Position numbers and translations under genes: made by a program
Part shown: positions 4,161-58,520 of the stretch, piece after piece
Layout: every line of letters starts with the position of its first letter
Position numbering within the stretch: the stretch's first letter is position 1
The notes under the pieces: generated by a model
What the model was told of the DNA's origin: nothing
Database searches by the model: none
The model's input: only the letters and a program-made list of their open reading frames with translations
Source: a virus
DNA length: 64,000 nt
IMG/VR virus record: IMGVR_UViG_3300022885_000010
Strand: one strand, 5' to 3'

Positions 4161-4906
4161 TATTAAGTTCATATGAAGATATGTACAGGGGTAAAACTAT
4201 AGTTATCGTTGGGTGTGGTTATAGTATAAATAACCTAAGTGAATATGATATGAGTTTAATAAATGCATGTTGTTCTATAGGAACAAATCAATCATACATC
4301 AAAATCAAATCGAATTACTACATGTCTGGTCATTTCCACCACACAGCAATGCAACATAAATTTGGAAATGGTGATATGTGTTTTTTTCAGGGAGAACCAC
4401 ATAACTTTTTTGATAGTGATGAGTATAGTGATGTAACTACATTAACTAATATAAATGTAGTTGGTGATTATGGATGGCTACCAAAGATAACAGATAGTAA
4501 TTTTAAGTTGGTTGGTGCAGAACAGATAGCATTTTCAGCAACTCATATGGCATATATACTTGGAGCCAAACGAATAGTTTATGTAGGCTTTGATTTCTCA
4601 GCACAAGGACACTTTTATAACAATAATGATGTATTATTGGATATACTAAAGGAGAATTCCAAATATCTTATGGATAATTATTATGGTATAAATTCATTTA
4701 TAAATGAAGATATAGATGATTTCTTTAGATTGAATTTTGATGCTAATATAAACATTAATAAATTTAGAAATTCAACTGATATTATTAATAAATTTAAGTA
4801 TTATATAGATACATTGAAACGTAATGATATTGAGGTTTATTCTATCCATGATAATGTATTGATTGATATTGGTGCAACAAAAATAAATATAGAGGATATA
4901 ATATGA
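4157..4906 (+). CDS. DUF115/Maf-like (MptE-fold) sugar transferase-like protein
   Basis: IVIVGCGYS, IGTN, AYILGAKRIVYVGFDF. Confidence 0.65.
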   Translation: MILSSYEDMYRGKTIVIVGCGYSINNLSEYDMSLINACCSIGTNQSYIKIKSNYYMSGHFHHTAMQHKFGNGDMCFFQGEPHNFFDSDEYSDVTTLTNINVVGDYGWLPKITDSNFKLVGAEQIAFSATHMAYILGAKRIVYVGFDFSAQGHFYNNNDVLLDILKENSKYLMDNYYGINSFINEDIDDFFRLNFDANININKFRNSTDIINKFKYYIDTLKRNDIEVYSIHDNVLIDIGATKINIEDII

Positions 4907-5484
4907 ATATAATTGGTATTATACCTGCACGTGGTGGTTCTAAGAGATTAAAAAATAAAAACATATTACCTATAATGGGTAAGCCACTAATCAATTGGAC
5001 TATAGATGCTGCATTAAATAGTAAATATATATCACATAATAATTTATATGTATCTACGGAATCGGATGATATTATGACTGTAGTTGGTGATAAATGTAAG
5101 ATTGTTAGGCGACCTATAGAATTATCTAATGATGATGTTTGGATGCAAGTTCCAATAACACATGCAATAGAACATATTGGTGTTGATTTGGATGATGAGG
5201 ATATTATTGTTATATTACAAGCAAATTCACCACAGATGACTTCCGATACAATAGATGAATGTATAGAACGTCTATTATATAATGATGCTATTTGGGAATT
5301 ATCAACTATGGATAACGATTATATTAATAATAGCCATATACATGTAATTCGAAAAAAAGTATGTTATCATATTGGAAAATCAAATTATAATACATTGTAT
5401 GTTGTTGATTGGATAGATATTCATGATGAAACTGAGTTTGAATATGTTAAATTGTTATTAGAGGGGAATTATAACTATGATTAA
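4903..5484 (+). CDS. neuA: Acylneuraminate cytidylyltransferase (CMP-nonulosonate synthetase)
   Basis: IIPARGGSKRLKNKN, VSTES, RPIELS, IDIHDETEF. Confidence 0.9.
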   Translation: MNIIGIIPARGGSKRLKNKNILPIMGKPLINWTIDAALNSKYISHNNLYVSTESDDIMTVVGDKCKIVRRPIELSNDDVWMQVPITHAIEHIGVDLDDEDIIVILQANSPQMTSDTIDECIERLLYNDAIWELSTMDNDYINNSHIHVIRKKVCYHIGKSNYNTLYVVDWIDIHDETEFEYVKLLLEGNYNYD

Positions 5485-5914: not shown

Positions 5915-6449
5915 TATAAATATGGGTTGTGGGTGGAGAGATTTTGGTGATGATTGGATTCATATTGATGGTGGTGATTATTCACATTTGGATTATAATG
6001 ATATAACTAAACTAGAATTCATAGATAATAGTGTTGATTTGATATATGCATCACACGTTATAGAATATTTTGATAGGACATCAATTATTAACATTCTATC
6101 TGAGTGGAAACGTGTATTGAAACCCAATGGTATATTGAGAATTGCAGTTCCAGACTTTAACTCTATATGTAGGTTATATATGACTGGTGATTATAAACTT
6201 GATTCATTTACAGGCCCTTTATATGGCAGAATGGATATGGGTGATGATATTATATACCACAAAACAACTTATGATTATGATTCACTACAGGAATTATTAT
6301 CTAATAATGGATTTACTAATATTGATTATTGGGATTGGCGTGATACTGATCATGGGGTTTATGATGATCATTCACAGGCATACATACCTAAGATGGATAA
6401 ATCGAATGGAACATTGATAAGTTTAAATATTGAATGTAATAAAATATAA
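5907..6449 (+). CDS. Class I SAM-dependent methyltransferase
   Basis: NMGCG, DLIYASHVIEY, WKRVLKPNGILRIAVPD. Confidence 0.85.
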   Translation: MININMGCGWRDFGDDWIHIDGGDYSHLDYNDITKLEFIDNSVDLIYASHVIEYFDRTSIINILSEWKRVLKPNGILRIAVPDFNSICRLYMTGDYKLDSFTGPLYGRMDMGDDIIYHKTTYDYDSLQELLSNNGFTNIDYWDWRDTDHGVYDDHSQAYIPKMDKSNGTLISLNIECNKI

Positions 6450-6460
6450 GTTGGGGTTAT

Positions 6461-7051
6461 ATGTTTGAAATAGTTAGTGAGTTTGAAAATGAAATTGCTA
6501 AATTCTTTGGATCTAAGTATGCAATAGCAACTGATTCGTGTACTCATGGTATTGAGTTATGTATGAGATATAAAAATATATCAATATTTAGTGTTCCAAA
6601 ACGAACATATCTATCAGTTCCAATGCTAGGGAACAAATTAGGTATTCCATTTGAATGGAGAGATGAATCATGGGAAGATTATTATTATATGGGTGATAAT
6701 AACATAATAGATTCTGCTGTATTATGGAAACCAAATTCATATATAGATGGAACTTATATGTGTATAAGTTTCCAATATCAAAAACACCTTAGTCTTGGTA
6801 GAGGTGGAATTATATTAACTAATGACTTCGAATCTTACAATACATTAAAGAAAATGTCTTATGATGGTAGATTACCAAATGTACCATGGAGAGAACAGAA
6901 TATTGATGTGTTTGGTTATCACTATTATATGACACCAGAAACAGCTAAATTGGGATTAGAAAAATTAAATGATGCTAAAAATACTGAACCACGTAAATGG
7001 GTGTATACTGATTGGGTGGATTTAACAACAATGGAGATTTTTAATGATTAA
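6461..7051 (+). CDS. Short DegT/DnrJ/EryC1-family sugar aminotransferase
   Basis: AIATDSCTHG, SFQYQKHL (PLP Lys), GRGGIILT. Confidence 0.8.
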   Translation: MFEIVSEFENEIAKFFGSKYAIATDSCTHGIELCMRYKNISIFSVPKRTYLSVPMLGNKLGIPFEWRDESWEDYYYMGDNNIIDSAVLWKPNSYIDGTYMCISFQYQKHLSLGRGGIILTNDFESYNTLKKMSYDGRLPNVPWREQNIDVFGYHYYMTPETAKLGLEKLNDAKNTEPRKWVYTDWVDLTTMEIFND

Positions 7052-8015
7052 GAAAAAAGCGTTTATAACAGGTATATCAGGACAGGATGGGTCATATCTG
7101 TCAGAGCATTTATTAGATAATGGGGTTGATGTTTATGGTATAACAAGACGAAATTCAACACCAGAACATCAAATTAATAGAATAGATCATTTAGATGGTG
7201 ATATAGAGGTTTCTTATGGTGATTTAAGTGATGTTAATGGATTGAATCGATTAATAAAAACTATACAACCAGATTATATTTTTAATTTGGCTGCACAATC
7301 ACATGTAAGAATAAGTTTTGATGTTCCTGAATACACAGCTCAAACAAATGCACTTGGAGTATTAAATATATTGGAAGCATATAGAACTAATGCACCTAAT
7401 GCTAAATTCTACCAAGCTAGTAGTTCTGAGATGTTTGGTAATGCAGTAGATGATGATATGATGCAAAGAGAAACTACACATATGCAACCAGTTAGTCCTT
7501 ATGGATGTGCTAAGTTATATGCATACTCAATAGTTAGAAATTATAGAAATTCATATAAGTTATTTGCGTCAAATGGAATTTTATTTAATCATGAATCACC
7601 ACGTAGAGGTTCAAACTTTGTAACTAACAAGATAATAAAGTCAGCAGTATCTATAAAAAAAGGACTACAGGATAAACTCGAATTAGGCAACTTAGATTCT
7701 AAACGTGACTGGGGTCATTCTTATGATTATGTTAGAGCTATGAAATTAATATTAGATCATGATGTGCCAGATGATTTTGTAGTTTCAACTGGAATAGCAC
7801 ACTCAGTAAGAGATCTATGTGAATTAGCATTTAACCGTGTTGGATTGGATTATAGAGATTATGTGGTTCAGAATGAAAAATATATTAGACCAGAAGAATT
7901 AAATTATTTATGTGGTGATTGCAGTAAAGCAAAGAAAACATTAAATTGGAATACAACATATACATTTGAATCTATGGTTAATGAAATGGTTGATTATTGG
8001 GATAACAAGGTATAA
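7044..8015 (+). CDS. gmd: GDP-mannose 4,6-dehydratase
   Basis: ITGISGQDGSYL, NLAAQSHV, YQASSSEMFG, SPYGCAK, GILFNHESPRRG, RDWGH. Confidence 0.96.
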   Translation: MIKKKAFITGISGQDGSYLSEHLLDNGVDVYGITRRNSTPEHQINRIDHLDGDIEVSYGDLSDVNGLNRLIKTIQPDYIFNLAAQSHVRISFDVPEYTAQTNALGVLNILEAYRTNAPNAKFYQASSSEMFGNAVDDDMMQRETTHMQPVSPYGCAKLYAYSIVRNYRNSYKLFASNGILFNHESPRRGSNFVTNKIIKSAVSIKKGLQDKLELGNLDSKRDWGHSYDYVRAMKLILDHDVPDDFVVSTGIAHSVRDLCELAFNRVGLDYRDYVVQNEKYIRPEELNYLCGDCSKAKKTLNWNTTYTFESMVNEMVDYWDNKV

Positions 8016-8017
8016 TT

Positions 8018-8956
8018 ATGAATATTGCTATAATAAGCGAAAAATCTTATATTGGGAAAATAGATAGAACATCACATAATATACGAACTGATGTTGCTTG
8101 GTCTATAGCTATAAAGACTGATAATTTTCCATTCTTTTATAAAACAGATATTATATATGATATAGTTATATGTATATTCCCTAAGAATGGTATAGAAACT
8201 ATACTTGGTAGAGATGTAATTTCATATCTACGGTCTATATCAAAGAAAATATTATTTATGCAAGAAGGAGCTAATGATTATTGGCAAGATTATAATTTAG
8301 CAATCCAGATAGAATATATTAATGTTATAAATCAATTTGATGGTATATTATGTCATAATGAAAGTGATGTTAGGTATTACAAAGGATTGTATGATACACC
8401 AGCATTTACATTGCAATCATTGATGATAGAGGATAATATATTATTAACACGACCTATAGAACGGTCTGGTGTGATGATAGGTGGTAATATGTGTTCTTGG
8501 TATAGTGGTATGGATTCTTTATTGGTAGCTAATAATATATCAACTAACATAACTGCACCATCAATGGGTAGAAAAACACCAGATGAAGATAGATTTGATA
8601 GTGTTAAATATCTTCCTTATATGGAATTCAATCAATGGATATATGAACTCAATAAAGTTAAATATGGAGTTCATATGATGAGAACATTTGCAGCTGGAAC
8701 GTTTGCATTAAATTGTTCATATTTAGGGATTCCATGTATAGGGTATGATTATTTAGATACACAGAGAATATTACACCCAGAAACATCAGTTGAATTATGT
8801 GATATACAATCAGCAAAAGAATTAGCGATTAGATTAAGAGATGATGATGATTTTTATAATGAATGTTCTACAACAACGAAAGAGTTGTATAATAAGTATT
8901 ATAAAGAGAGTGTATTTTTAGAAAAATTTAATAATGTAATTAAGGAATTGGGTTAA
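8018..8956 (+). CDS. Putative glycosyltransferase
   Basis: GT-B-like C-terminal half (LGIPCIGY); operon context. Confidence 0.55.
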   Translation: MNIAIISEKSYIGKIDRTSHNIRTDVAWSIAIKTDNFPFFYKTDIIYDIVICIFPKNGIETILGRDVISYLRSISKKILFMQEGANDYWQDYNLAIQIEYINVINQFDGILCHNESDVRYYKGLYDTPAFTLQSLMIEDNILLTRPIERSGVMIGGNMCSWYSGMDSLLVANNISTNITAPSMGRKTPDEDRFDSVKYLPYMEFNQWIYELNKVKYGVHMMRTFAAGTFALNCSYLGIPCIGYDYLDTQRILHPETSVELCDIQSAKELAIRLRDDDDFYNECSTTTKELYNKYYKESVFLEKFNNVIKELG

Positions 8957-11195: not shown

Positions 11196-11873
11196 ATGAA
11201 CAATTTATATTTTGATATAGAAACATATCCAATATATGATTCTTACAAAGAAGATGAACTATTAATACCTATATGGGAACGGTTTTGTAATTACAAATTA
11301 AATAAAAAGCCAGAATACGAAGATGAATTAAATAGATACGATCTATTATGGGATAGTTCTTCGTCATTATATCCTACATTTGCAAAGATATTATGTATAT
11401 CATTTATATATGATAATGATGGGGAATTACACACTGGAACATTAAAAGGTGAAGAGTCCGAAATAATAGGACAGTTCAATGAATTACTAGAGAACTATAT
11501 AGATTTTATAGTAGGTCATAACATACTACAATTTGATTTACCATTTATAATTAGACGTGCTATGGTAAATGGGATTCCATATAAGAATTTACCTAAATAT
11601 CTACACGTAGTAGGTAAAAAACCATGGAATTTACATTATATATATGATACTAAGCAAAAATTAACATTTACTTCTAACTTCGGTGGTGTTATAACACCAT
11701 CATTAGAACAAGCGTGTTATGAGGCTAATATAGACACACCTAAGACCGATATAGTCAATGGTGGTAATTTAGTACCATTTATCAAATCTGGTGGTGATAT
11801 AGAGCTTATATATGAGTATTGTGAGAAAGATGTTTATACTACATATAGGTTATATGAATGGATGAACCAGTAG
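11196..11873 (+). CDS. PolB-like DEDDy 3'-5' exonuclease
   Basis: FDIET, GHNILQFDLPFI, YCEKDV. Confidence 0.88.
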   Translation: MNNLYFDIETYPIYDSYKEDELLIPIWERFCNYKLNKKPEYEDELNRYDLLWDSSSSLYPTFAKILCISFIYDNDGELHTGTLKGEESEIIGQFNELLENYIDFIVGHNILQFDLPFIIRRAMVNGIPYKNLPKYLHVVGKKPWNLHYIYDTKQKLTFTSNFGGVITPSLEQACYEANIDTPKTDIVNGGNLVPFIKSGGDIELIYEYCEKDVYTTYRLYEWMNQ

Positions 11874-12073
11874 TCACACACATCGCTTTTGTTGTGGATT
11901 ATATTTATATACATTCAATACAAGAACCGAGATCAAACAGAACTATAGTTATAATGTTTTATAATTTTTTGGTGACTGGTGATCATAGAGTTCCATATTC
12001 CATCTATGGCTATCAGATTGAATATAATAGAATATACGAATCATACGTAAAATGGAAATTAATTAATGGATGA
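11858..12073 (+). CDS. WKL-tail family small protein
   Basis: C-terminal YESYVKWKLING. Confidence 0.65.
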   Translation: MDEPVVTHIAFVVDYIYIHSIQEPRSNRTIVIMFYNFLVTGDHRVPYSIYGYQIEYNRIYESYVKWKLING

Positions 12074-12272
12074 GCATGACTTTATATACTTCAGAGATGA
12101 TCATATAGAGGTAGATTTATATCCACCACAAACAGTGAATATGAAATTTGCTTATAATTTTTATAATAGTTTCCAACCTATAAACGAAGATTATTATAGG
12201 CGTTATGGGAATGAATTTAGTTATATACGTATTTTTTATAATTATGTAAAATGGAAATTAATTAAGGAGTGA
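12066..12272 (+). CDS. WKL-tail family small protein
   Basis: C-terminal YNYVKWKLIKE. Confidence 0.65.
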   Translation: MDEHDFIYFRDDHIEVDLYPPQTVNMKFAYNFYNSFQPINEDYYRRYGNEFSYIRIFYNYVKWKLIKE

Positions 12273-12275
12273 AAT

Positions 12276-12839
12276 ATGCCATGCTATTCATATTATGGTG
12301 AAAAGGATGATAATTGTGGTTGTAGAAATACACCAGAACCAACTAAGAAACAAAAAAAAGAATCCAAACGTCTTAATGTTTTGTATTACGTTAGATGTAA
12401 TTCGTTATTACTAAATAAATTAATTGAATGTACGATTACAATGTTAAATCCGAGTATGGATCCAGTAATATCTAAATCTATATTTGAAGATATTATTAAT
12501 AAATCTAGATTATCATTTAATATGTTAGAATTGGTATTTGATGAGAATGATACACTAAAGGAATTAAATAAGATTAAACATAAGTACGATTCCAGTCTAT
12601 GTGCTATATTAAGTTATCTTGATATGGAACTGATGGTAGATAATGTTATATCATCAAGTGAATATGAGAACTTCAAAGAGGACATCTACGAATTCTGGGT
12701 AGAACATAAAAGAAAAGATATAGATAGGGTTACTGCTGAACTCAATCGTGTGTTTAGTGAGACTGAAATGCATTTGTTAATTAATAATATTATAAATGAA
12801 GCTAAAGAACTTAAAATAATTCAGATGGTTATACTATAA
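12276..12839 (+). CDS. hypothetical protein
   Basis: ORF track. Confidence 0.65.
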   Translation: MPCYSYYGEKDDNCGCRNTPEPTKKQKKESKRLNVLYYVRCNSLLLNKLIECTITMLNPSMDPVISKSIFEDIINKSRLSFNMLELVFDENDTLKELNKIKHKYDSSLCAILSYLDMELMVDNVISSSEYENFKEDIYEFWVEHKRKDIDRVTAELNRVFSETEMHLLINNIINEAKELKIIQMVIL

Positions 12840-14038: not shown

Positions 14039-14079
14039 AAAATAAAATTAGGATATGTCATTTCTTTTTCGTAAGTTTG
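14039..14079 (+). promoter_or_regulatory. Bacteroidota-type promoter copy 4 (drives ncRNA array)
   Basis: AAAATAAAA-TTAG-N20-TAAGTTTG. Confidence 0.85.
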
Positions 14080-14113
14080 TATTAAGAATTGACACAAAAT
14101 AAAAATTAAACTG

Positions 14114-14185
14114 TTTGCTATGATATTTCATACTTCTAAACTACTATACCATGAATATAACAAGAAACGAAATATCAATTACAAA
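14114..14185 (+). ncRNA. Y-RNA-like stem-loop unit 1
   Basis: TTTG/CAAA stem, CTA/ATTA internal loop, TGATATTTC/GAAATATCA stem, ATACTTCT loop motif. Confidence 0.75.
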
Positions 14186-14194
14186 TAATACTAT

Positions 14195-14262
14195 GGGTTG
14201 CTATATAGAAACATACTTCTAAAATATACAAAACGCAAACTACGTTTTTATAATTACAACCC
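14195..14262 (+). ncRNA. Y-RNA-like stem-loop unit 2
   Basis: GGGTTG/CAACCC, CTA/ATTA, TATAGAAAC/GTTTTTATA, ATACTTCT. Confidence 0.75.
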
Positions 14263-14283
14263 TTTCTTTTAAAATTAATTTAA

Positions 14284-14345
14284 GTCTGCTATGAAATTTC
14301 ATACTTCTATAATTTTGGATATTAATCGAAATTTCAATTACAGAC
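14284..14345 (+). ncRNA. Y-RNA-like stem-loop unit 3
   Basis: GTCTG/CAGAC, CTA/ATTA, TGAAATTTC/GAAATTTCA, ATACTTCT. Confidence 0.75.
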
Positions 14346-14357
14346 ATTTTTTACTTA

Positions 14358-14490
14358 AATTGCTATATGAAATCATACTTCTAACATTAAGGAACTTCAG
14401 GTCGTAGGTTCGAGTCCTACCTAATCGTAATAATCGGTTAGTAGCTCAGTTGGTAGAGCAGAAGTATAAAACGATTTCATAATCACAATT
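14358..14490 (+). ncRNA. YrlA-like RNA: unit 4 with circularly permuted tRNA module
   Basis: AATTG/CAATT, CTA/ATCA, TATGAAATC/GATTTCATA; inside: T-arm GTAGG-TTCGAGT-CCTAC, then CTAATCG/CGGTTAG acceptor stem closed by a loop, then D-arm GCTC-AGTTGGTA-GAGC. Confidence 0.82.
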
Positions 14491-14518
14491 TAATATTTAA
14501 TAATAAGGAAATCTTTAA

Positions 14519-16624
14519 ATGAATAAAGACCTATTAAAAATAGCATTAAAATATAGATCATCTATATTCATAATGGACTCATCTTCTACAGTATTAGAAG
14601 ATATTGATATTAATAATTACAAACAATCAATAAAAGAGACTATAGCATATAACCAAATATTGAATAATTTGGGTTATACGATAGATTCTCATTTACTTAA
14701 ACTTGTATTACGATATAACTTAAATTTAATTGATATAATTTTTATATTGGAAGAATTTAAAGGTGCACGTTCATATAAAACATTTTATCCAAACTTCCCA
14801 GAAGAAGTTTATAATATGTCTGAATTTGAGCTATACTTTAACGCTATAATACATTATTTGTCATTAGGCGAATACTATCCAGATATAGATAAAAAGCCAA
14901 GACAAACTGATATTGACGTATTAAACTTCAAACGTATAGGTATAATAGATATTAATGGTATGATAGAAATATTATGTGATTTATTATCTACTAATGATTC
15001 TCTATCTGATTTCGATAAGGAATCAGTTAAGGTATTAATAGCTCACTTTGGAGAGATATATGATATTAATACTATAAATATTCCATATAAAGAAAACTTA
15101 TGTTATGTAGTTGAATATACTGATAATTTAGAATTACTCAAAACACCAACTGATATACTACGTTACTGTACATATCTATCTGGTGGTGATGTATCATTAA
15201 CTGAAAATACCAAGTTTAAATCATTATCTAAAAGTCTTAGACGTAGAATAACTAATAGACTTGATAAAGTGTTTAACGTAGATGACTTCAAGAGACATAA
15301 AAATAAATGGATTAAATTAACACATTCATTACATTGTGGTGAATTTCTAAAACAATCCAAATTTTCAGATGTATTGAGATCATTTAGAAATAATAAAAAT
15401 GTAGAGAGTTTAAGCACTATTATAAATGAATCTTTAAAAAATAAAGACTATCATTCAGCTATTAATTCTCTAATGAAGAAACCAGGTGAATACGTAAGAA
15501 ACATAGTAACTTTAATTAATATCTCTGATGGATATAACTCTGGTAAATTAGGTATTGATAATTTAGAAGAATGTATATCAGAAGTATCAACACGAGTATT
15601 ATTACAAGCTAAAGGACACTTACAAGTTATATTAAAAGGTTATGATAGTAGATTAGTATTTCCTAAAGGTTCTACATCTAAAGTTAGAAGAGTGCAATTT
15701 AAGAAATTTACAGATTGGCAATTGCAATTAGTACAAGACTATCTAAATTGTATAAACTCACATTTAAGATTGAGATTACAAGGAACGTCAGAAGGTAAGA
15801 AAGTATATATAGATGAAAGATTAAGTCAATATACATTACCTACACAACAAAGAAGTGTATCGGAAGGTCAATTCTCTTATGGTAGAGGATCTAAGATTGA
15901 TTTAGAAGATAAAAATAAAAATATAACTTTACGAATGTTTTGTCATTGGATAGGACAAGATATTGATTTGTCAGCTACATTATATAATGATAAATTTGAA
16001 ATGGTAACTCATTGTTCATTTCAACAATTAAAAATTAAAGAATTAGAAATAGTACATTCTGGTGATATTACACGAGCACCAAATGGAGCATCTGAATTTA
16101 TTGATATAACTATGAATAAAGTAGTAAAATCAGAAGTTAGATATATAACATTAAATATAAATGTTTATAGTGGCCCAACATTTAAAGAACATAAAGAATG
16201 TTTCGCAGGTTTTATGCTAAGAGAACGTCCTAATTCAAATGAGATTTATGATCCTAAAACAGTTAAGTATTCTATGAAATTAGATGGAAATTCTAAGGTA
16301 GCAGTTCCATTTATCTTTGATATTGAAACTAAACAGATAATCTGGACTGATTTATATTTTAGAAATGGTGGTATGCATCATAACACAGTTATCAATAATG
16401 ATGTGAATGTATCTGATGTGTTAAGGTCTATAGTTAATCTAACTGATAAAACTACATTAAAAGACTTATTTAGTATGTACTATGCACCATCACAATTAAC
16501 ATTTGACATTGATAACGCTGATATGCTATATGTTACGGATGAGTATGAGGATGATACGTTAGATAATAAAAATGTTGTTAGAGCAAGTGATGTTCTAACT
16601 ATAAATTCAAAATATATAAAATAA
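14519..16624 (+). CDS. Probable Rot/TROVE-like helical domain fused to C-terminal TerD-like domain
   Basis: FYPNFPEEVYNMSEFELYFNAIIHY; C-terminal DIDLSA..HSGDITRAPNGASEFIDI (TerD-like); Rot assignment inferred from family recall and adjacent Y-like RNAs. Confidence 0.7.
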   Translation: MNKDLLKIALKYRSSIFIMDSSSTVLEDIDINNYKQSIKETIAYNQILNNLGYTIDSHLLKLVLRYNLNLIDIIFILEEFKGARSYKTFYPNFPEEVYNMSEFELYFNAIIHYLSLGEYYPDIDKKPRQTDIDVLNFKRIGIIDINGMIEILCDLLSTNDSLSDFDKESVKVLIAHFGEIYDINTINIPYKENLCYVVEYTDNLELLKTPTDILRYCTYLSGGDVSLTENTKFKSLSKSLRRRITNRLDKVFNVDDFKRHKNKWIKLTHSLHCGEFLKQSKFSDVLRSFRNNKNVESLSTIINESLKNKDYHSAINSLMKKPGEYVRNIVTLINISDGYNSGKLGIDNLEECISEVSTRVLLQAKGHLQVILKGYDSRLVFPKGSTSKVRRVQFKKFTDWQLQLVQDYLNCINSHLRLRLQGTSEGKKVYIDERLSQYTLPTQQRSVSEGQFSYGRGSKIDLEDKNKNITLRMFCHWIGQDIDLSATLYNDKFEMVTHCSFQQLKIKELEIVHSGDITRAPNGASEFIDITMNKVVKSEVRYITLNINVYSGPTFKEHKECFAGFMLRERPNSNEIYDPKTVKYSMKLDGNSKVAVPFIFDIETKQIIWTDLYFRNGGMHHNTVINNDVNVSDVLRSIVNLTDKTTLKDLFSMYYAPSQLTFDIDNADMLYVTDEYEDDTLDNKNVVRASDVLTINSKYIK

Positions 16625-16772: not shown

Positions 16773-16800
16773 TAATAAATTCATTTCTAAAAATTTATAA

Positions 16801-16926: not shown

Positions 16927-17010
16927 TGCGGAATGGTGTAATGGTTAACATCCTGGGCTCATAACCCAGAGACGAGAAGTATAATGACAGTTCGAATCTG
17001 TCTTCCGCAA
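16927..17010 (+). tRNA. tRNA-Met(CAT), initiator-like, 16-nt variable region
   Basis: TGCGGAA/TTCCGCA; CTGGG-CTCATAA-CCCAG (3 GC pairs); GACAG-TTCGAAT-CTGTC. Confidence 0.85.
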
Positions 17011-17021
17011 CTTTTTATTAT

Positions 17022-17366: not shown

Positions 17367-17846
17367 ATGTATTTCAAGACATTCCAAACAAACGAAATAA
17401 TTGATGATTGGATTTTACATGTTCAGAAATTCATTGAAATGAATCCTGATGCTAAAATAGCAGTTGGATCGGATTCAAAATATAAGAAGGCATCTAAAAA
17501 AGTTATTTATGTTACCGTGATAGCTATGTTTTATTATGGAACTGATGGATACAATAAAGGTGCTCATTTAATATATTCTATGGATAAACATAAAAAAGAA
17601 TTATCTATATTTGAAATGCTTTGGACTGAAGTAGAGAAATCTAAATGTATAGCCGAAGAAATACAAGATATTTTACAAGAACCTGTAGAAATCCATATCG
17701 ATTTAAATTCAGAAGCTAAATATAAATCTAATATAGCATATCCTGCGGCTGTAGGTTGGCTTAAAAGTTTAGGGTTTGATGTATTTGCAAAACCAAATGC
17801 ACCTGCTGCAACGTGTGCAGCTGATTTAATAGCTAATAGAAAATAA
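17367..17846 (+). CDS. RNase H-like YkuK-family protein
   Basis: AVGSDS, LWTEVEKS, VEIHIDLN, KPNAPAATCAAD. Confidence 0.8.
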   Translation: MYFKTFQTNEIIDDWILHVQKFIEMNPDAKIAVGSDSKYKKASKKVIYVTVIAMFYYGTDGYNKGAHLIYSMDKHKKELSIFEMLWTEVEKSKCIAEEIQDILQEPVEIHIDLNSEAKYKSNIAYPAAVGWLKSLGFDVFAKPNAPAATCAADLIANRK

Positions 17847-17880
17847 AATTTGTTTATATCATTATTTTTTCGTAAGTTTG
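17840..17880 (+). promoter_or_regulatory. Bacteroidota-type promoter copy 5
   Basis: AAAATAAAA-TTTG-N20-TAAGTTTG. Confidence 0.85.
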
Positions 17881-17916
17881 TATTATTATTTTAAACGATA
17901 TTAAAAAAATAACATT

Positions 17917-18387
17917 ATGAATGAGAATTATGAATTTTTCTGGTCAGGGCCATTTAGTCAATGGCATCCTTGTAAATTTGAAATAGATGGTGATATGTAT
18001 AATTGTACAGAACAGTATATGATGCAACAAAAGGCTTTATTCTTTGGTGATGAATTAACTGCTTCAAAGATTATGAATACTTTACATCCAAAACAACAGA
18101 AGAAACTAGGTAGAGAAGTTTCAAATTTCATTGCTGAAAAATGGTCAGTTGTATGTGAAGAAATTGTATATAAAGGAAACCATGCAAAGTTCACACAAAA
18201 CGAAAAATTATTAAATAAATTACTTGATACTAAAGATAAAACTTTAGTTGATGCTTCTCCATGTGATAAGATTTGGGGTATTGGTTTACTTGAAGATGAT
18301 CCAAGAGCACAAGACCCTGAACAGTGGTTAGGTTTAAATTTGTTAGGAAAGGTCTTAACTAAATTAAGAGATGACTTAGTTAAATAG
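17917..18387 (+). CDS. NADAR (YbiA-family) protein
   Basis: FSQWHP, EQYMMQQKA, KKLGR, AKFTQN, DKIWGIG, NLLGKVL. Confidence 0.92.
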   Translation: MNENYEFFWSGPFSQWHPCKFEIDGDMYNCTEQYMMQQKALFFGDELTASKIMNTLHPKQQKKLGREVSNFIAEKWSVVCEEIVYKGNHAKFTQNEKLLNKLLDTKDKTLVDASPCDKIWGIGLLEDDPRAQDPEQWLGLNLLGKVLTKLRDDLVK

Positions 18388-47330: not shown

Positions 47331-48419
47331 ATGAAATTTGACAAAAAAGAAATACGTCGGTTAGTAGATGAAAAGTATATTACCGAGAACAGACACCCAA
47401 ACTACAATATTTATGTATATAAATATACATCTAAGACTGTATATGAACGTTATTGGAACGATTATACATTAAACCTACGTGGAACTGTATTAGACAGATT
47501 CTCTAATTTAATATCTATACCATTCTCTAAATTCTTTAATTATAGCGAATACCCATCTCTTGAATTTTCTGATGACACTACCTATATCTATGAGAAGATG
47601 GATGGTGCATTACTAAACTTATTTAATTATGAGGGTAAATGGAATTTTGCAACTCAACAAAGGTTCGTTTCTGAACATACAGAACGAGCAATGAAAATAT
47701 TTGAAGGTAAGTATATAAAGCTAATGCCTATATTAGATCCAACAAAAACATATATGTTTGAGTTAATATCTGATGTATCACATGTAATTGTTAATTATGA
47801 AGAAGAAGATTTACATTTATTAGGTGTTAGGAATAACGTTACTTGTGAATATGATAATTTTGAATATTTCAATTTAAGAAATATGTTCTCATCTGCCAAA
47901 ATATTATTTAAAACTAAAAAACCAGAAGAAGTAAATAATTTTATAGCTAATATAGACACCATATTAGATGAAAATTCTGAAGGTGTTGTTATATACCAAC
48001 CTACTAATGACATACGTGTAAAGGTTAAAACTCAACGTTATATAGAACTGCATAAATTACTATATGTTAATAATGAACGTGCTATGTTTAATTCGTTAAT
48101 ACAAAATAAGAATATAGTCGATGAAACTATATTAAAAGATATACCTGATGAATGGTATAACAATATTAAGACTATGCAAAATAGAATTAAATCTGAAATG
48201 GATAGAATTATAAGTGAAGTGTCAATCTATGTTACTGATAATAGAGATGTAATCCGTTATATGTTAGAGAAGAATAAAGAAAATAGAAAGTTAATGGCTA
48301 TATCAATCAAAGATTATAAATATAAGCATGTGGTATTCTCTCTATTAGACGATAAGAAAGATGATGAATTGTTATTTGATATTATCAAATCTGAAAAGAA
48401 GTGTTTTAATGAAAATTAA
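47331..48419 (+). CDS. T4 Rnl1-type RNA ligase
   Basis: YKYT, RG.V.D, PFSKFFNY.E, EKMDG (motif I), FELI, EGVV, RVKVK. Confidence 0.9.
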   Translation: MKFDKKEIRRLVDEKYITENRHPNYNIYVYKYTSKTVYERYWNDYTLNLRGTVLDRFSNLISIPFSKFFNYSEYPSLEFSDDTTYIYEKMDGALLNLFNYEGKWNFATQQRFVSEHTERAMKIFEGKYIKLMPILDPTKTYMFELISDVSHVIVNYEEEDLHLLGVRNNVTCEYDNFEYFNLRNMFSSAKILFKTKKPEEVNNFIANIDTILDENSEGVVIYQPTNDIRVKVKTQRYIELHKLLYVNNERAMFNSLIQNKNIVDETILKDIPDEWYNNIKTMQNRIKSEMDRIISEVSIYVTDNRDVIRYMLEKNKENRKLMAISIKDYKYKHVVFSLLDDKKDDELLFDIIKSEKKCFNEN

Positions 48420-57659: not shown

Positions 57660-58520
57660 ATGAAAATTAAAATATTACAAGGTGTCCCAGCATCAGGCAA
57701 GACAACCTACGCATTGGATTACTGCAATAAAAATACAGATTGGTTTCGAGTATCACGTGATGATATTAGAAATATGAGAGGTAAGTATTGGCTTCCTAAA
57801 GATGAGCAAATCATAACAGACATTGAAAAATCATGTATTAAATTTGCATTAGAACACAATAAAAACGTTATAGTTGATGCTATGAACCTAAATCCAAATC
57901 ATCTTAGAACATTAAAAGATTATATCAAATCTATAGATCCAAATACACAAATCACAATTAAGAAGTTTCATGTGGATATTGTAGTTGCTATTGATAGAGA
58001 TTCTAAACGTAGTAATCCAGTAGGAGAAAAGGTTATTAGAGAAATATATAATAAGTATTTCAAAATAGAACCTAAAGTCTTAAAACAAGATATATCATTA
58101 CCATCAGCTATTATATGTGATATTGATGGTACTATTGCTGATAGAGTAGATAGAAGTCCATTTGAATGGGATAGAGTAGATGAGGATATTGCTATACAAC
58201 CAATTATAGATATAATTTGTAAGTATAATGAATTAGGAACTGAAATTATATTTTTGTCTGGTAGAGATGGCGTGTGTTATGATAAAACTTTAAAGTGGAT
58301 AAATAATAACGTTGGATTTACAACGTTAGATACTAAGTTGTATATGAGAGATGAGGGTGATATGCGTAAAGATAATATAATCAAAACAGAATTATTCGAT
58401 AAGCATATCAGAGATAAATACAATGTATTGTTTGTATTGGATGATAGAGATCAAGTTGTTAAGATGTGGAGAGAAGAGATGGGTCTAACTTGTTTACAAG
58501 TAAATTATGGAGACTTCTGA
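57660..58520 (+). CDS. pseT: Polynucleotide 5'-kinase/3'-phosphatase (T4 PNKP-like)
   Basis: GVPASGKTT, SRDDIR; HAD ICDIDGT, LSGRD, DDRDQVV.MWR. Confidence 0.93.
   Translation: MKIKILQGVPASGKTTYALDYCNKNTDWFRVSRDDIRNMRGKYWLPKDEQIITDIEKSCIKFALEHNKNVIVDAMNLNPNHLRTLKDYIKSIDPNTQITIKKFHVDIVVAIDRDSKRSNPVGEKVIREIYNKYFKIEPKVLKQDISLPSAIICDIDGTIADRVDRSPFEWDRVDEDIAIQPIIDIICKYNELGTEIIFLSGRDGVCYDKTLKWINNNVGFTTLDTKLYMRDEGDMRKDNIIKTELFDKHIRDKYNVLFVLDDRDQVVKMWREEMGLTCLQVNYGDF

Follow-up and report, generated by a model that had tools for sequence, protein, structure and literature searches.

Covarying RNA modules coupled to a gene for a helical-repeat and TerD-domain protein in phages and bacteria: a probable Ro/Y-RNA-like ribonucleoprotein system

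The 64-kb stretch of viral DNA analysed here (IMG/VR record IMGVR_UViG_3300022885_000010, called the window below) carries, behind a repeated promoter motif, a tandem array of four structured RNA units followed by a gene for a 701-amino-acid protein with a TerD-fold domain. A sequence-only reading of this DNA had described the units as Y-RNA-like hairpins and the gene as a probable Rot(TROVE)-TerD gene, and our analysis indicates that the four RNAs and the protein probably constitute a Ro/Y-RNA-like ribonucleoprotein tied to tRNA and RNA-repair biology. The features of the locus are as follows, with 'handle' denoting the stem-and-bulge part that the units share.

14067-14081, + strand: phage promoter motif TTTCGTAAGTTTGTA, 20 copies against 0.49 expected
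14113-14186, + strand: unit 1 (RNA module 1), handle with a 31-nt A-rich apical loop; GTTTG / CTA / TGATATTTC / ATACTTCT ... GAAATATCA / ATTA / CAAAT
14196-14261, + strand: unit 2 (RNA module 2), handle with a 23-nt loop; GGTTG / CTA / TATAGAAAC / ATACTTCT ... GTTTTTATA / ATTA / CAACC
14284-14345, + strand: unit 3 (RNA module 3), handle with a 19-nt loop; GTCTG / CTA / TGAAATTTC / ATACTTCT ... GAAATTTCA / ATTA / CAGAC
14358-14490, + strand: unit 4 (RNA module 4), the same handle around a tRNA-like insert; AATTG / CTA / TATGAAATC / ATACTTCT ... GATTTCATA / ATCA / CAATT
14394-14465, + strand: permuted tRNA-like domain of unit 4, from a match to Rfam YrlA (RF02553) and arms readable from the letters; ACUUC 14394-98, T arm 14404-20, acceptor hairpin 14421-41, D arm 14444-59, GAAGU 14461-65
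14519-16624, + strand: gene for the 701-residue protein, with a Shine-Dalgarno-like AAGGA at 14505-09; related to NF041916, without the RING finger
14957-15847, + strand: helical repeat region, residues 147-443; Ro60-like part, presumed RNA-binding platform
15899-16432, + strand: TerD-fold beta-sandwich domain, residues 461-638; conserved acidic motifs DIDLS and HSGD...GASEFID

The four units of one shared architecture reported earlier are present at 14113-14490 (+) and are apparent on direct reading. Each runs, from 5' to 3', through a 5-6-bp outer stem ending TG/CA, a CTA bulge facing ATTA (ATCA in unit 4) and a 9-bp inner stem, and directly 3' of the inner stem every unit has the invariant ATACTTCT, with AUACUUCU as the constant tract. 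The stem sequences vary from unit to unit and yet pair, as had been claimed; scored by script, the inner stem is paired at 9 of 9 and the outer stem at 5 of 5 positions in all four, with one G-U pair in the inner stem of unit 2. The minimum-energy folds of units 1, 3 and 4, folded singly, are the proposed structure, and the fold z-scores of units 1 to 4 are -2.95, -3.65, -4.38 and -4.46, respectively. The minimum-energy fold of unit 2 retains the outer stem only, two small hairpins replacing the 9-bp inner stem, which is backed by a covariance model of the handle (R1, below; 50.1 bits), though unit 2 helped to build that model. The GC content of the modules in the window is about 0.25, and their single-stranded pyrimidine tract is AUACUUCUA, that of most relatives being UUCCUUCUA.

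The same handle recurs at loci that encode relatives of the protein, of which 80 viral and 31 genomic ones, plus three cultured phages, were compared. In nearly all of these loci the tract TTCCTTCT (in some lineages ATACTTCT or TTACTTCT) is clustered on the strand of the gene, directly upstream or downstream of it, and is preceded at a fixed distance by GGCYA. From the consensus of 54 short modules, nnnGG-CUA-U(8 nt)C-UUCCUUCUA-(loop)-UAG(8 nt)-(A/C)UUU-CCnnn, the handle is written as GG-CYA, 9 bp, UUCCUUCUA ... (A/C)UUU-CC. In the alignment of these modules, which come from different loci, paired cells amount to 96% versus 59% in shuffles, a percentage that is inflated by the pre-selection of the modules for pairing, as the diversity of pair types is not; both partners have changed in 12 of the 14 pairs, covariation scores 0.975 versus 0.215, and all pairing measures collapse once the partners are slid by 1-3 columns. 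Because the 54 modules had been chosen for pairing, an independent control was run, in which both stems close in 85 of 158 motif occurrences, compared with 47 of 787 after an exchange of stems among modules; 78 distinct inner stems are found among the motif occurrences. With double changes in this many pairs and with the outcome of the stem-swap control, the units are covarying structured RNAs, in agreement with the sequence-only reading.

The coupling of the RNAs to the protein gene is strict. A covariance model of the RNA handle (R1; threshold E<=0.01) gave 251 matches in 905 kb of loci, all 251 on the gene strand and nearly all beside the gene. The scan around homologs that had been suggested as a check found at least one R1 match in 94 of 99 family loci, which upholds the proposed link between the RNA units and the downstream protein, and three of the five loci without a match (L067, L076 and L092) are cut near the gene by a contig end. 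Within the window R1 detects by default only units 1 (43.7 bits, E 1e-10), 2 (50.1 bits, E 1e-12) and 3 (50.8 bits, E 6e-13), all of which belong to the seed alignment of the model, and unit 4, which lies outside the seed alignment, is added at 34.5 bits with filters off; there is no match at the two tRNA gene clusters of the window or elsewhere in the 64 kb, and none in a control locus encoding a DUF2828 protein (L001). In most loci the array is upstream of the gene, in others (e.g. L010, L011, L041, L056 and Rhodococcus phage Weasels2) it is downstream, so that a simple 5' leader is ruled out, and the number of modules per locus ranges from one to about eight. One module of about 130 nt occurs in many loci, and those inspected hold a permuted tRNA-like insert.

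Such an insert is seen in unit 4, where 90 nt form a YrlA-type domain, tRNA-like and circularly permuted. The domain has a variable loop between ACUUC and the T arm, a T arm of GUAGG-UUCGAGU-CCUAC and a 7-bp acceptor stem sealed by UAAUAAU, and it has no anticodon loop; the T arm, the closed acceptor-like stem and the D arm of the YrlA tRNA-like module, and the 5'/3' stem enclosing them, are all found in unit 4. The Rfam search that had been advised for the units identified this one as a YrlA-type tRNA mimic, the match of RF02553 in cmscan (37.9 bits, E 6.2e-6) covering the tRNA-like model positions 23-85 only and staying below the gathering score of 69. In Klebsiella phage phi1_175008 the gene for a DUF2828 protein has next to it a YrlA-like element to which the core is also about 80% identical. 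A T arm followed by a sealed acceptor and then a D arm is a hallmark of bacterial Y RNAs, and in Mycobacterium smegmatis YrlA is cleaved by RNase P, after which CCA is added (PMC4201824). Since the 7-bp sealed acceptor stem of unit 4 resembles that of the M. smegmatis RNA (PMC4201824) and CCA-adding enzymes recur as neighbours of the pair, cleavage by RNase P and the adding of CCA are predicted for unit 4 as well. Further YrlA-type matches lie beside homologs in L002, L004, L008 and L010, and by a strict regular expression 31 of 105 loci have the permuted T-to-D order, some of these being junctions of adjacent tRNA genes and not permuted domains (e.g. window position 16990). In one module of L008 (2601-2729) the apical insert is a tRNA in normal order and apparently complete (Rfam tRNA, 47.1 bits, 2631-2701).

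The sequence AGAAGUAU, the complement of AUACUUCU, occurs among the units only in unit 4, at 14460-67. That the tract pairs with AGAAGUAU within unit 4 was considered and rejected, as this is not kept in relatives (the anticodon-like stem of L002 is CGGC/GCCG), and the tRNA-like pairing ACUUC/GAAGU is more consistent with the family. The gene for tRNA-Met(CAU) at 16927-17011 has a long unstructured variable region that holds AGAAGUAU at 16975-82. Pairing of AUACUUCU with the variable loop of tRNA-Met was likewise discarded as a general mechanism, the complement being present in 1 of 228 tRNAs (116 loci) compared with about 5 expected, and because no other of these 228 tRNAs in related loci has such a complement, its presence in tRNA-Met is probably a coincidence.

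The open reading frame of the protein spans 14519-16624 and encodes 701 residues, exactly as first read. A full HMMER scan found 2,443 representatives of its relatives (clusters at 50% identity), mostly of about 700 residues and named 'hypothetical' or 'TerD family protein' in their sources. The protein has no match in Pfam, nor do 60 relatives, and in PHROGs it matches only the families of unknown function phrog_33734 and phrog_5698. In the AlphaFold2 (AF2) model (predicted local distance difference test 90, predicted template-modelling score 0.88), residues 461-638 form a TerD beta-sandwich by structure comparison, so that a TerD partner domain does stand where Ro60 has its vWA domain, as proposed; a C-terminal vWA domain carrying a MIDAS (metal-ion-dependent adhesion site) was not found, its place being occupied by the TerD beta-sandwich. 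The helical N-terminal part is rich in invariant Arg and His residues, and the only long structural matches of its model are three Ro60 entries. The 'Rot/TROVE' label fares less well: the structural matches to Ro60 speak for it, whereas the TROVE domain PF05731 has no sequence match in Pfam, phmmer and hmmsearch profiles find no Ro60 among the PDB sequences, and Foldseek searches of the PDB, AlphaFold database (AFDB) Swiss-Prot and AFDB clusters return TerD and members of the family, and no Ro60. An AFDB cluster automatically named 'ZorC EH domain' was set aside, there being no ZorC structure among the structural matches. By sequence the protein is not a TROVE member; on our reading of the model it is Ro-like in shape, with homology to TROVE unproven.

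NF041916, the MXAN_6230/SCO0854 RING family (Pfam Prok-RING_4), is a clear homolog of the 701-residue protein (E 1.7e-83, 281 bits), the match spanning model positions 5-103, 175-347 and 381-767, and family members match it with E 1e-82 to 1e-115. Because 281 bits is below the NF041916 cut-off of 600 and a Pfam scan finds no RING finger, the protein is a homolog of this family and not a member. A sample of 301 Planctomycetota genomes contains five true members (>849 bits), in one of which (L129), where the RING was checked, residues 114-159 form the inserted finger. Upstream DNA is available for four of the true members, and in three of them a single R1 module precedes the gene by about 80-90 nt on the same strand. 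These handle copies are as follows.

L129, 1371-1425: handle copy at a RING paralog, GGCUGA-GUCCAGGC-UUCCUUCU...GCCUGGAC-GAUCU-CC
L130, 4138-4192, - strand: handle copy at a RING paralog
L131, 4126-4179, - strand: handle copy at a RING paralog

The GC content of the modules at the planctomycete RING paralogs is about 0.62, compared with about 0.25 in the window, and the tract is nevertheless identical, an argument for recognition of the handle by the conserved core of the protein. In the literature on SCO0854 and MXAN_6230 no published function was found for NF041916 or for the RING-less group.

The promoter placed ahead of the array by the sequence-only reading is real as a repeated motif. 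The 15-mer TTTCGTAAGTTTGTA at 14067-14081 is one of the 20 copies in the window (among them 11158, 17868, 20775, 47284 and 62364), which lie on the + strand every time, and judging from this recurrence it is probably the main promoter of the phage. The copy at 14067-14081 ends 31 nt ahead of unit 1, the next copy downstream is at 17868, and between the two lie the RNA array, the 701-residue reading frame, five tRNA genes and an RNase H-like gene. The 14067 promoter thus probably starts a transcript with the RNA array and the protein gene, and a terminator-like hairpin near 16800 may end the transcription unit after the latter. A core of TAnnTTTG, which resembles the Bacteroidota -7 element, is contained in TTTCGTAAGTTTGTA and hints at the host. 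A sigma-70 promoter reading of TGCTATGAT was rejected, the spacing to TTGACA being 24 nt and a site scan showing no excess. Contigs from four salt-lake runs have identical sequence, without informative variants.

The pair of RNA array and protein gene is found at about a hundred further loci, which belong to jumbo phages, to other large phages and to a variety of bacteria. In Rhodococcus phage Weasels2 (L082) four modules, the third of which is tRNA-like, lie downstream of gp266, and an RtcB RNA ligase (405 bits, record positions 88712-89809) follows about 3 kb downstream of gp266 and the modules, a layout that recalls rsr-yrlBA-rtcBA loci. Xanthomonas phage XacN1 has three modules upstream of ORF396, with a terminator-like hairpin separating the array from the gene, Lactobacillus phage LpeD also carries the pair, and genes for an RNA ligase and an HNH endonuclease stand directly upstream in Zooshikella ganghwensis DSM 15267. 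The loci contain 228 tRNA genes, every one of them on the strand of the protein gene. The CCA-adding enzyme is the commonest named neighbour family, tied with the HNH endonuclease (4 of 140 open reading frames each), and no canonical TROVE gene was found in five family-carrying phage genomes. In the window itself a T4-type PNKP (HAD_PNKP, E 4e-51) is encoded at 57660-58520, and a putative Rnl1 at 47331 has no Pfam match.

Some further observations concern the surroundings of the pair. After the first tRNA cluster of the window, 17367-18387 encode two proteins, one RNase H-like (PF04308) and one with a NADAR domain. A GOLLD RNA (RF02032, 184.7 bits) with an embedded tRNA lies at 5684-6150 of L012, in a viral contig of 100 kb, about 700 nt downstream of a homolog of the 701-residue protein's gene. 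In a chromosome of Ca. Uabimicrobium (L090) a DDE transposase at 4671-5297 stands between a three-module array (4248-4610) and the gene (5965-8172), and a contig of a Neomarinimicrobiota metagenome-assembled genome (L100) has a TnpB/Cas12f-like reading frame (OrfB_IS605 and Cas12f1-like TNB domain) at 11342-12727, near the homolog locus.

To our knowledge, Ro60 with its Y RNAs is the only well-understood ring protein programmed by small tRNA-mimicking RNAs, and it is regarded as restricted to TROVE-bearing genomes. Among phages, another version of Ro60/Rsr is reportedly the mycobacteriophage Ro. Thermus phage phiLo is known to encode a Ro60 protein, phiRo60, with two upstream Y-like RNAs, Yrl1 and Yrl2 (PMC12135203), and a jumbo-phage survey mentions ROT/TROVE proteins in some phages (PMC7824862). 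As in the Ro60/Rsr system with YrlA and YrlB, at least two small stem-bulge-stem RNAs lie beside the protein gene on the same strand, one RNA has a tRNA mimic in which the T arm comes first, then a sealed acceptor and then the D arm, there is a single strand rich in pyrimidines, and RNA-repair genes (RtcB, RNA ligase, PNKP) are nearby. The protein, like Ro60, which provides its best long structural matches, has a helical repeat followed by a globular domain that would bind metal. Unlike Ro60, it has no TROVE sequence signal, about 146 additional N-terminal residues and a TerD beta-sandwich in place of vWA/MIDAS, and unlike Y RNAs, its RNAs have the handle GG-CYA / 9 bp / UUCCUUCUA and stand in arrays of up to about eight modules.

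The locus also resembles the DUF2828+DUF7788 'RNA-binding protein' loci of Klebsiella phages (Stephanstirmvirinae), in which the gene lies inside a tRNA array and is followed by several stem RNAs, one of them with the permuted tRNA-like core that is about 80% identical to that of unit 4. However, the DUF2828 protein is unrelated by sequence to the 701-residue protein (BLASTP, hhalign) and has a Ro60-type vWA domain, and its RNAs have a different constant tract, CAGCAA, and no R1 match. In Klebsiella phage phi1_175008 (L001, 3800-4300) two of the stem RNAs after the DUF2828+DUF7788 gene have tRNA-like cores, and the record shows tiny reading frames or nothing there. With the TerD family (TerD/TerE/TerZ) the protein shares the fold of residues 461-638 and acidic DxDxS and HSGD-type motifs at positions that, from knowledge of the family, we take to be Ca2+ sites, whereas its TerD part is a domain of a 700-residue RNA-linked protein and not a stand-alone 190-residue ter-operon protein; no further ter genes were seen among the window reading frames scanned. 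A small RNA array directly upstream of a gene for a presumed RNA-binding protein is also typical of type III toxin-antitoxin systems (ToxIN). ToxI repeats, however, are identical tandem copies processed by the ToxN endoribonuclease, whereas nothing but the handle motifs is common to the units here, whose sequences and lengths vary and whose stems covary. With units that are not copies of each other, and with no match to a ToxN-like fold in the structure searches of the 701-residue protein, the array is not of the ToxIN type.

The reading that we prefer joins these observations: the four RNAs and the 701-residue protein would be two halves of one ribonucleoprotein system. One transcript from the 14067 promoter would contain the four small RNAs and then the protein gene, and the array would be processed into separate RNAs. 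Each RNA has a handle, made up of a basal stem that G-C pairs close, an internal loop of 3x4 (C-U/C-A facing A/C-U-U-U/A), a 9-bp helix of free sequence and the single-stranded pyrimidine tract, and above it a variable apical cargo, namely short A-rich loops in units 1-3 and the sealed, anticodon-less tRNA mimic in unit 4. The helical part, with its Ro60-like shape, may bind the handle as its docking site, and the TerD domain would take the place of the vWA domain of Ro60. Such a division corresponds to that of Y RNAs, in which a stem binds Ro60 and a loop or tRNA-like module recruits other factors (PMC4201824; PMC12135203). The particle would then act like Ro60/Rsr with its Y RNAs, the RNAs gating the protein or tethering it to tRNA-handling or RNA-decay and repair enzymes in infection, with a possible role in tRNA or RNA surveillance, repair or counter-defence.

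Besides the pre-selection of the aligned modules, several results weigh against this reading. The Rsr-binding site GNCGAAN0-1G near the 5' end, which defines bacterial Y RNAs (PMC4201824), is absent from the units (there is no G-N-C-G-A-A in 14100-14500), and the 54-module consensus has GGCUAU...UUCCUUCUA in its place, so the units are not canonical Y RNAs; Y RNAs are moreover expected to lie no more than about 4 kb from a TROVE gene whose product binds them, and the adjacent gene here is not TROVE. Alignment of the family with 25 TROVE proteins by hhalign gave a probability of 0.1. A control with the DUF2828 family linked it to TROVE in the vWA part only (86%), for which reason hhalign is insensitive for the helical part. 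A Pfam survey of 140 neighbouring reading frames found no single partner enzyme conserved beside the pair, and the sequencing runs with window DNA are salt-lake DNA metagenomes only, with no RNA run among them.

Of the other explanations, one holds that the RNAs are substrates or decoys, either bait for host anticodon nucleases and other tRNA-targeting defences or RNAs that are transiently processed or chaperoned, so that the protein would be an anti-defence or RNA-maturation factor and not the core of a stable particle. The tRNA-like inserts and the genuine-order tRNA inside the module of L008, the location within tRNA gene arrays, the heal-and-seal enzymes in the same genomes and the 7-bp sealed acceptor stem like that of the RNase P-cleaved M. 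smegmatis YrlA (PMC4201824) would all fit. However, most modules have no tRNA-like cargo and their handle is still very strongly constrained, and it is the handle, not the cargo, that co-varies with the presence of the protein, the non-phage RING paralogs included, which points to a recognition element for the protein itself; we regard this explanation as unlikely. We give still less credence to the modules being cis-acting operon elements (attenuators, processing or stability signals, or autoregulatory translational operators) in place of independent small RNAs. In its favour, the modules of the window sit between promoter and gene without a terminator there, a single module lies about 80 nt ahead of the start codon in the RING-type paralogs, and in XacN1 the terminator-like hairpin lies between array and gene. 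Yet arrays are found downstream of the gene in many loci, their copy number varies from one to about eight, the cargo includes whole tRNA-like domains, and known Y RNAs are also co-transcribed with rsr and then processed (PMC4201824). Co-location without interaction, by elements that go with tRNA clusters or by repeats at the level of DNA (binding sites for proteins or a mobile miniature element, for instance), is very improbable, for although phage tRNA regions are rich in odd tRNA-like elements, as the GOLLD RNA of L012 illustrates, the R1 matches lie without exception on the gene strand, nearly all beside the gene and nowhere else in the 64 kb, the compensatory changes in 12 of 14 pairs require a folded single strand, and the handle is kept from phage DNA of 26% GC to loci with a module GC near 0.62.

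For the ribonucleoprotein itself, the most likely picture is a Ro/Y-RNA-like logic realized by another protein family and another RNA handle, with TerD instead of vWA. A more tentative view, to which we assign a minor share of belief, is that the helical and TerD core is an unrecognised ancient RNA-binding module with its own handle (GG-CYA / 9 bp / UUCCUUCUA), and so a ribonucleoprotein class independent of TROVE/Ro60. In that case phages would use the core as a multi-RNA particle displaying tRNA mimics, and the bacterial RING fusion with the same RNA would be an RNA-loaded or RNA-gated E3-like signalling protein of prokaryotic conflict systems.

In conclusion, the suggestion that the system was undescribed agrees with our searches, in which no family for the handle was found in Rfam 15 and no paper on the motif, on SCO0854 or MXAN_6230 or on TerD together with Y RNA was found in the literature searched, although an earlier mention at the domain level, as 'ROT/TROVE-TerD', may exist elsewhere. 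Since cultured carriers exist (Weasels2, XacN1, LpeD and Zooshikella ganghwensis), the hypothesis is directly testable. If it is true, a function would be given to a large group of 'hypothetical' and 'TerD family' proteins and a first molecular role to the TerD domain, phage tRNA arrays and RNA repair would be linked to a dedicated ribonucleoprotein, and the RING paralogs with the same RNA would point to RNA-controlled RING proteins in bacteria.

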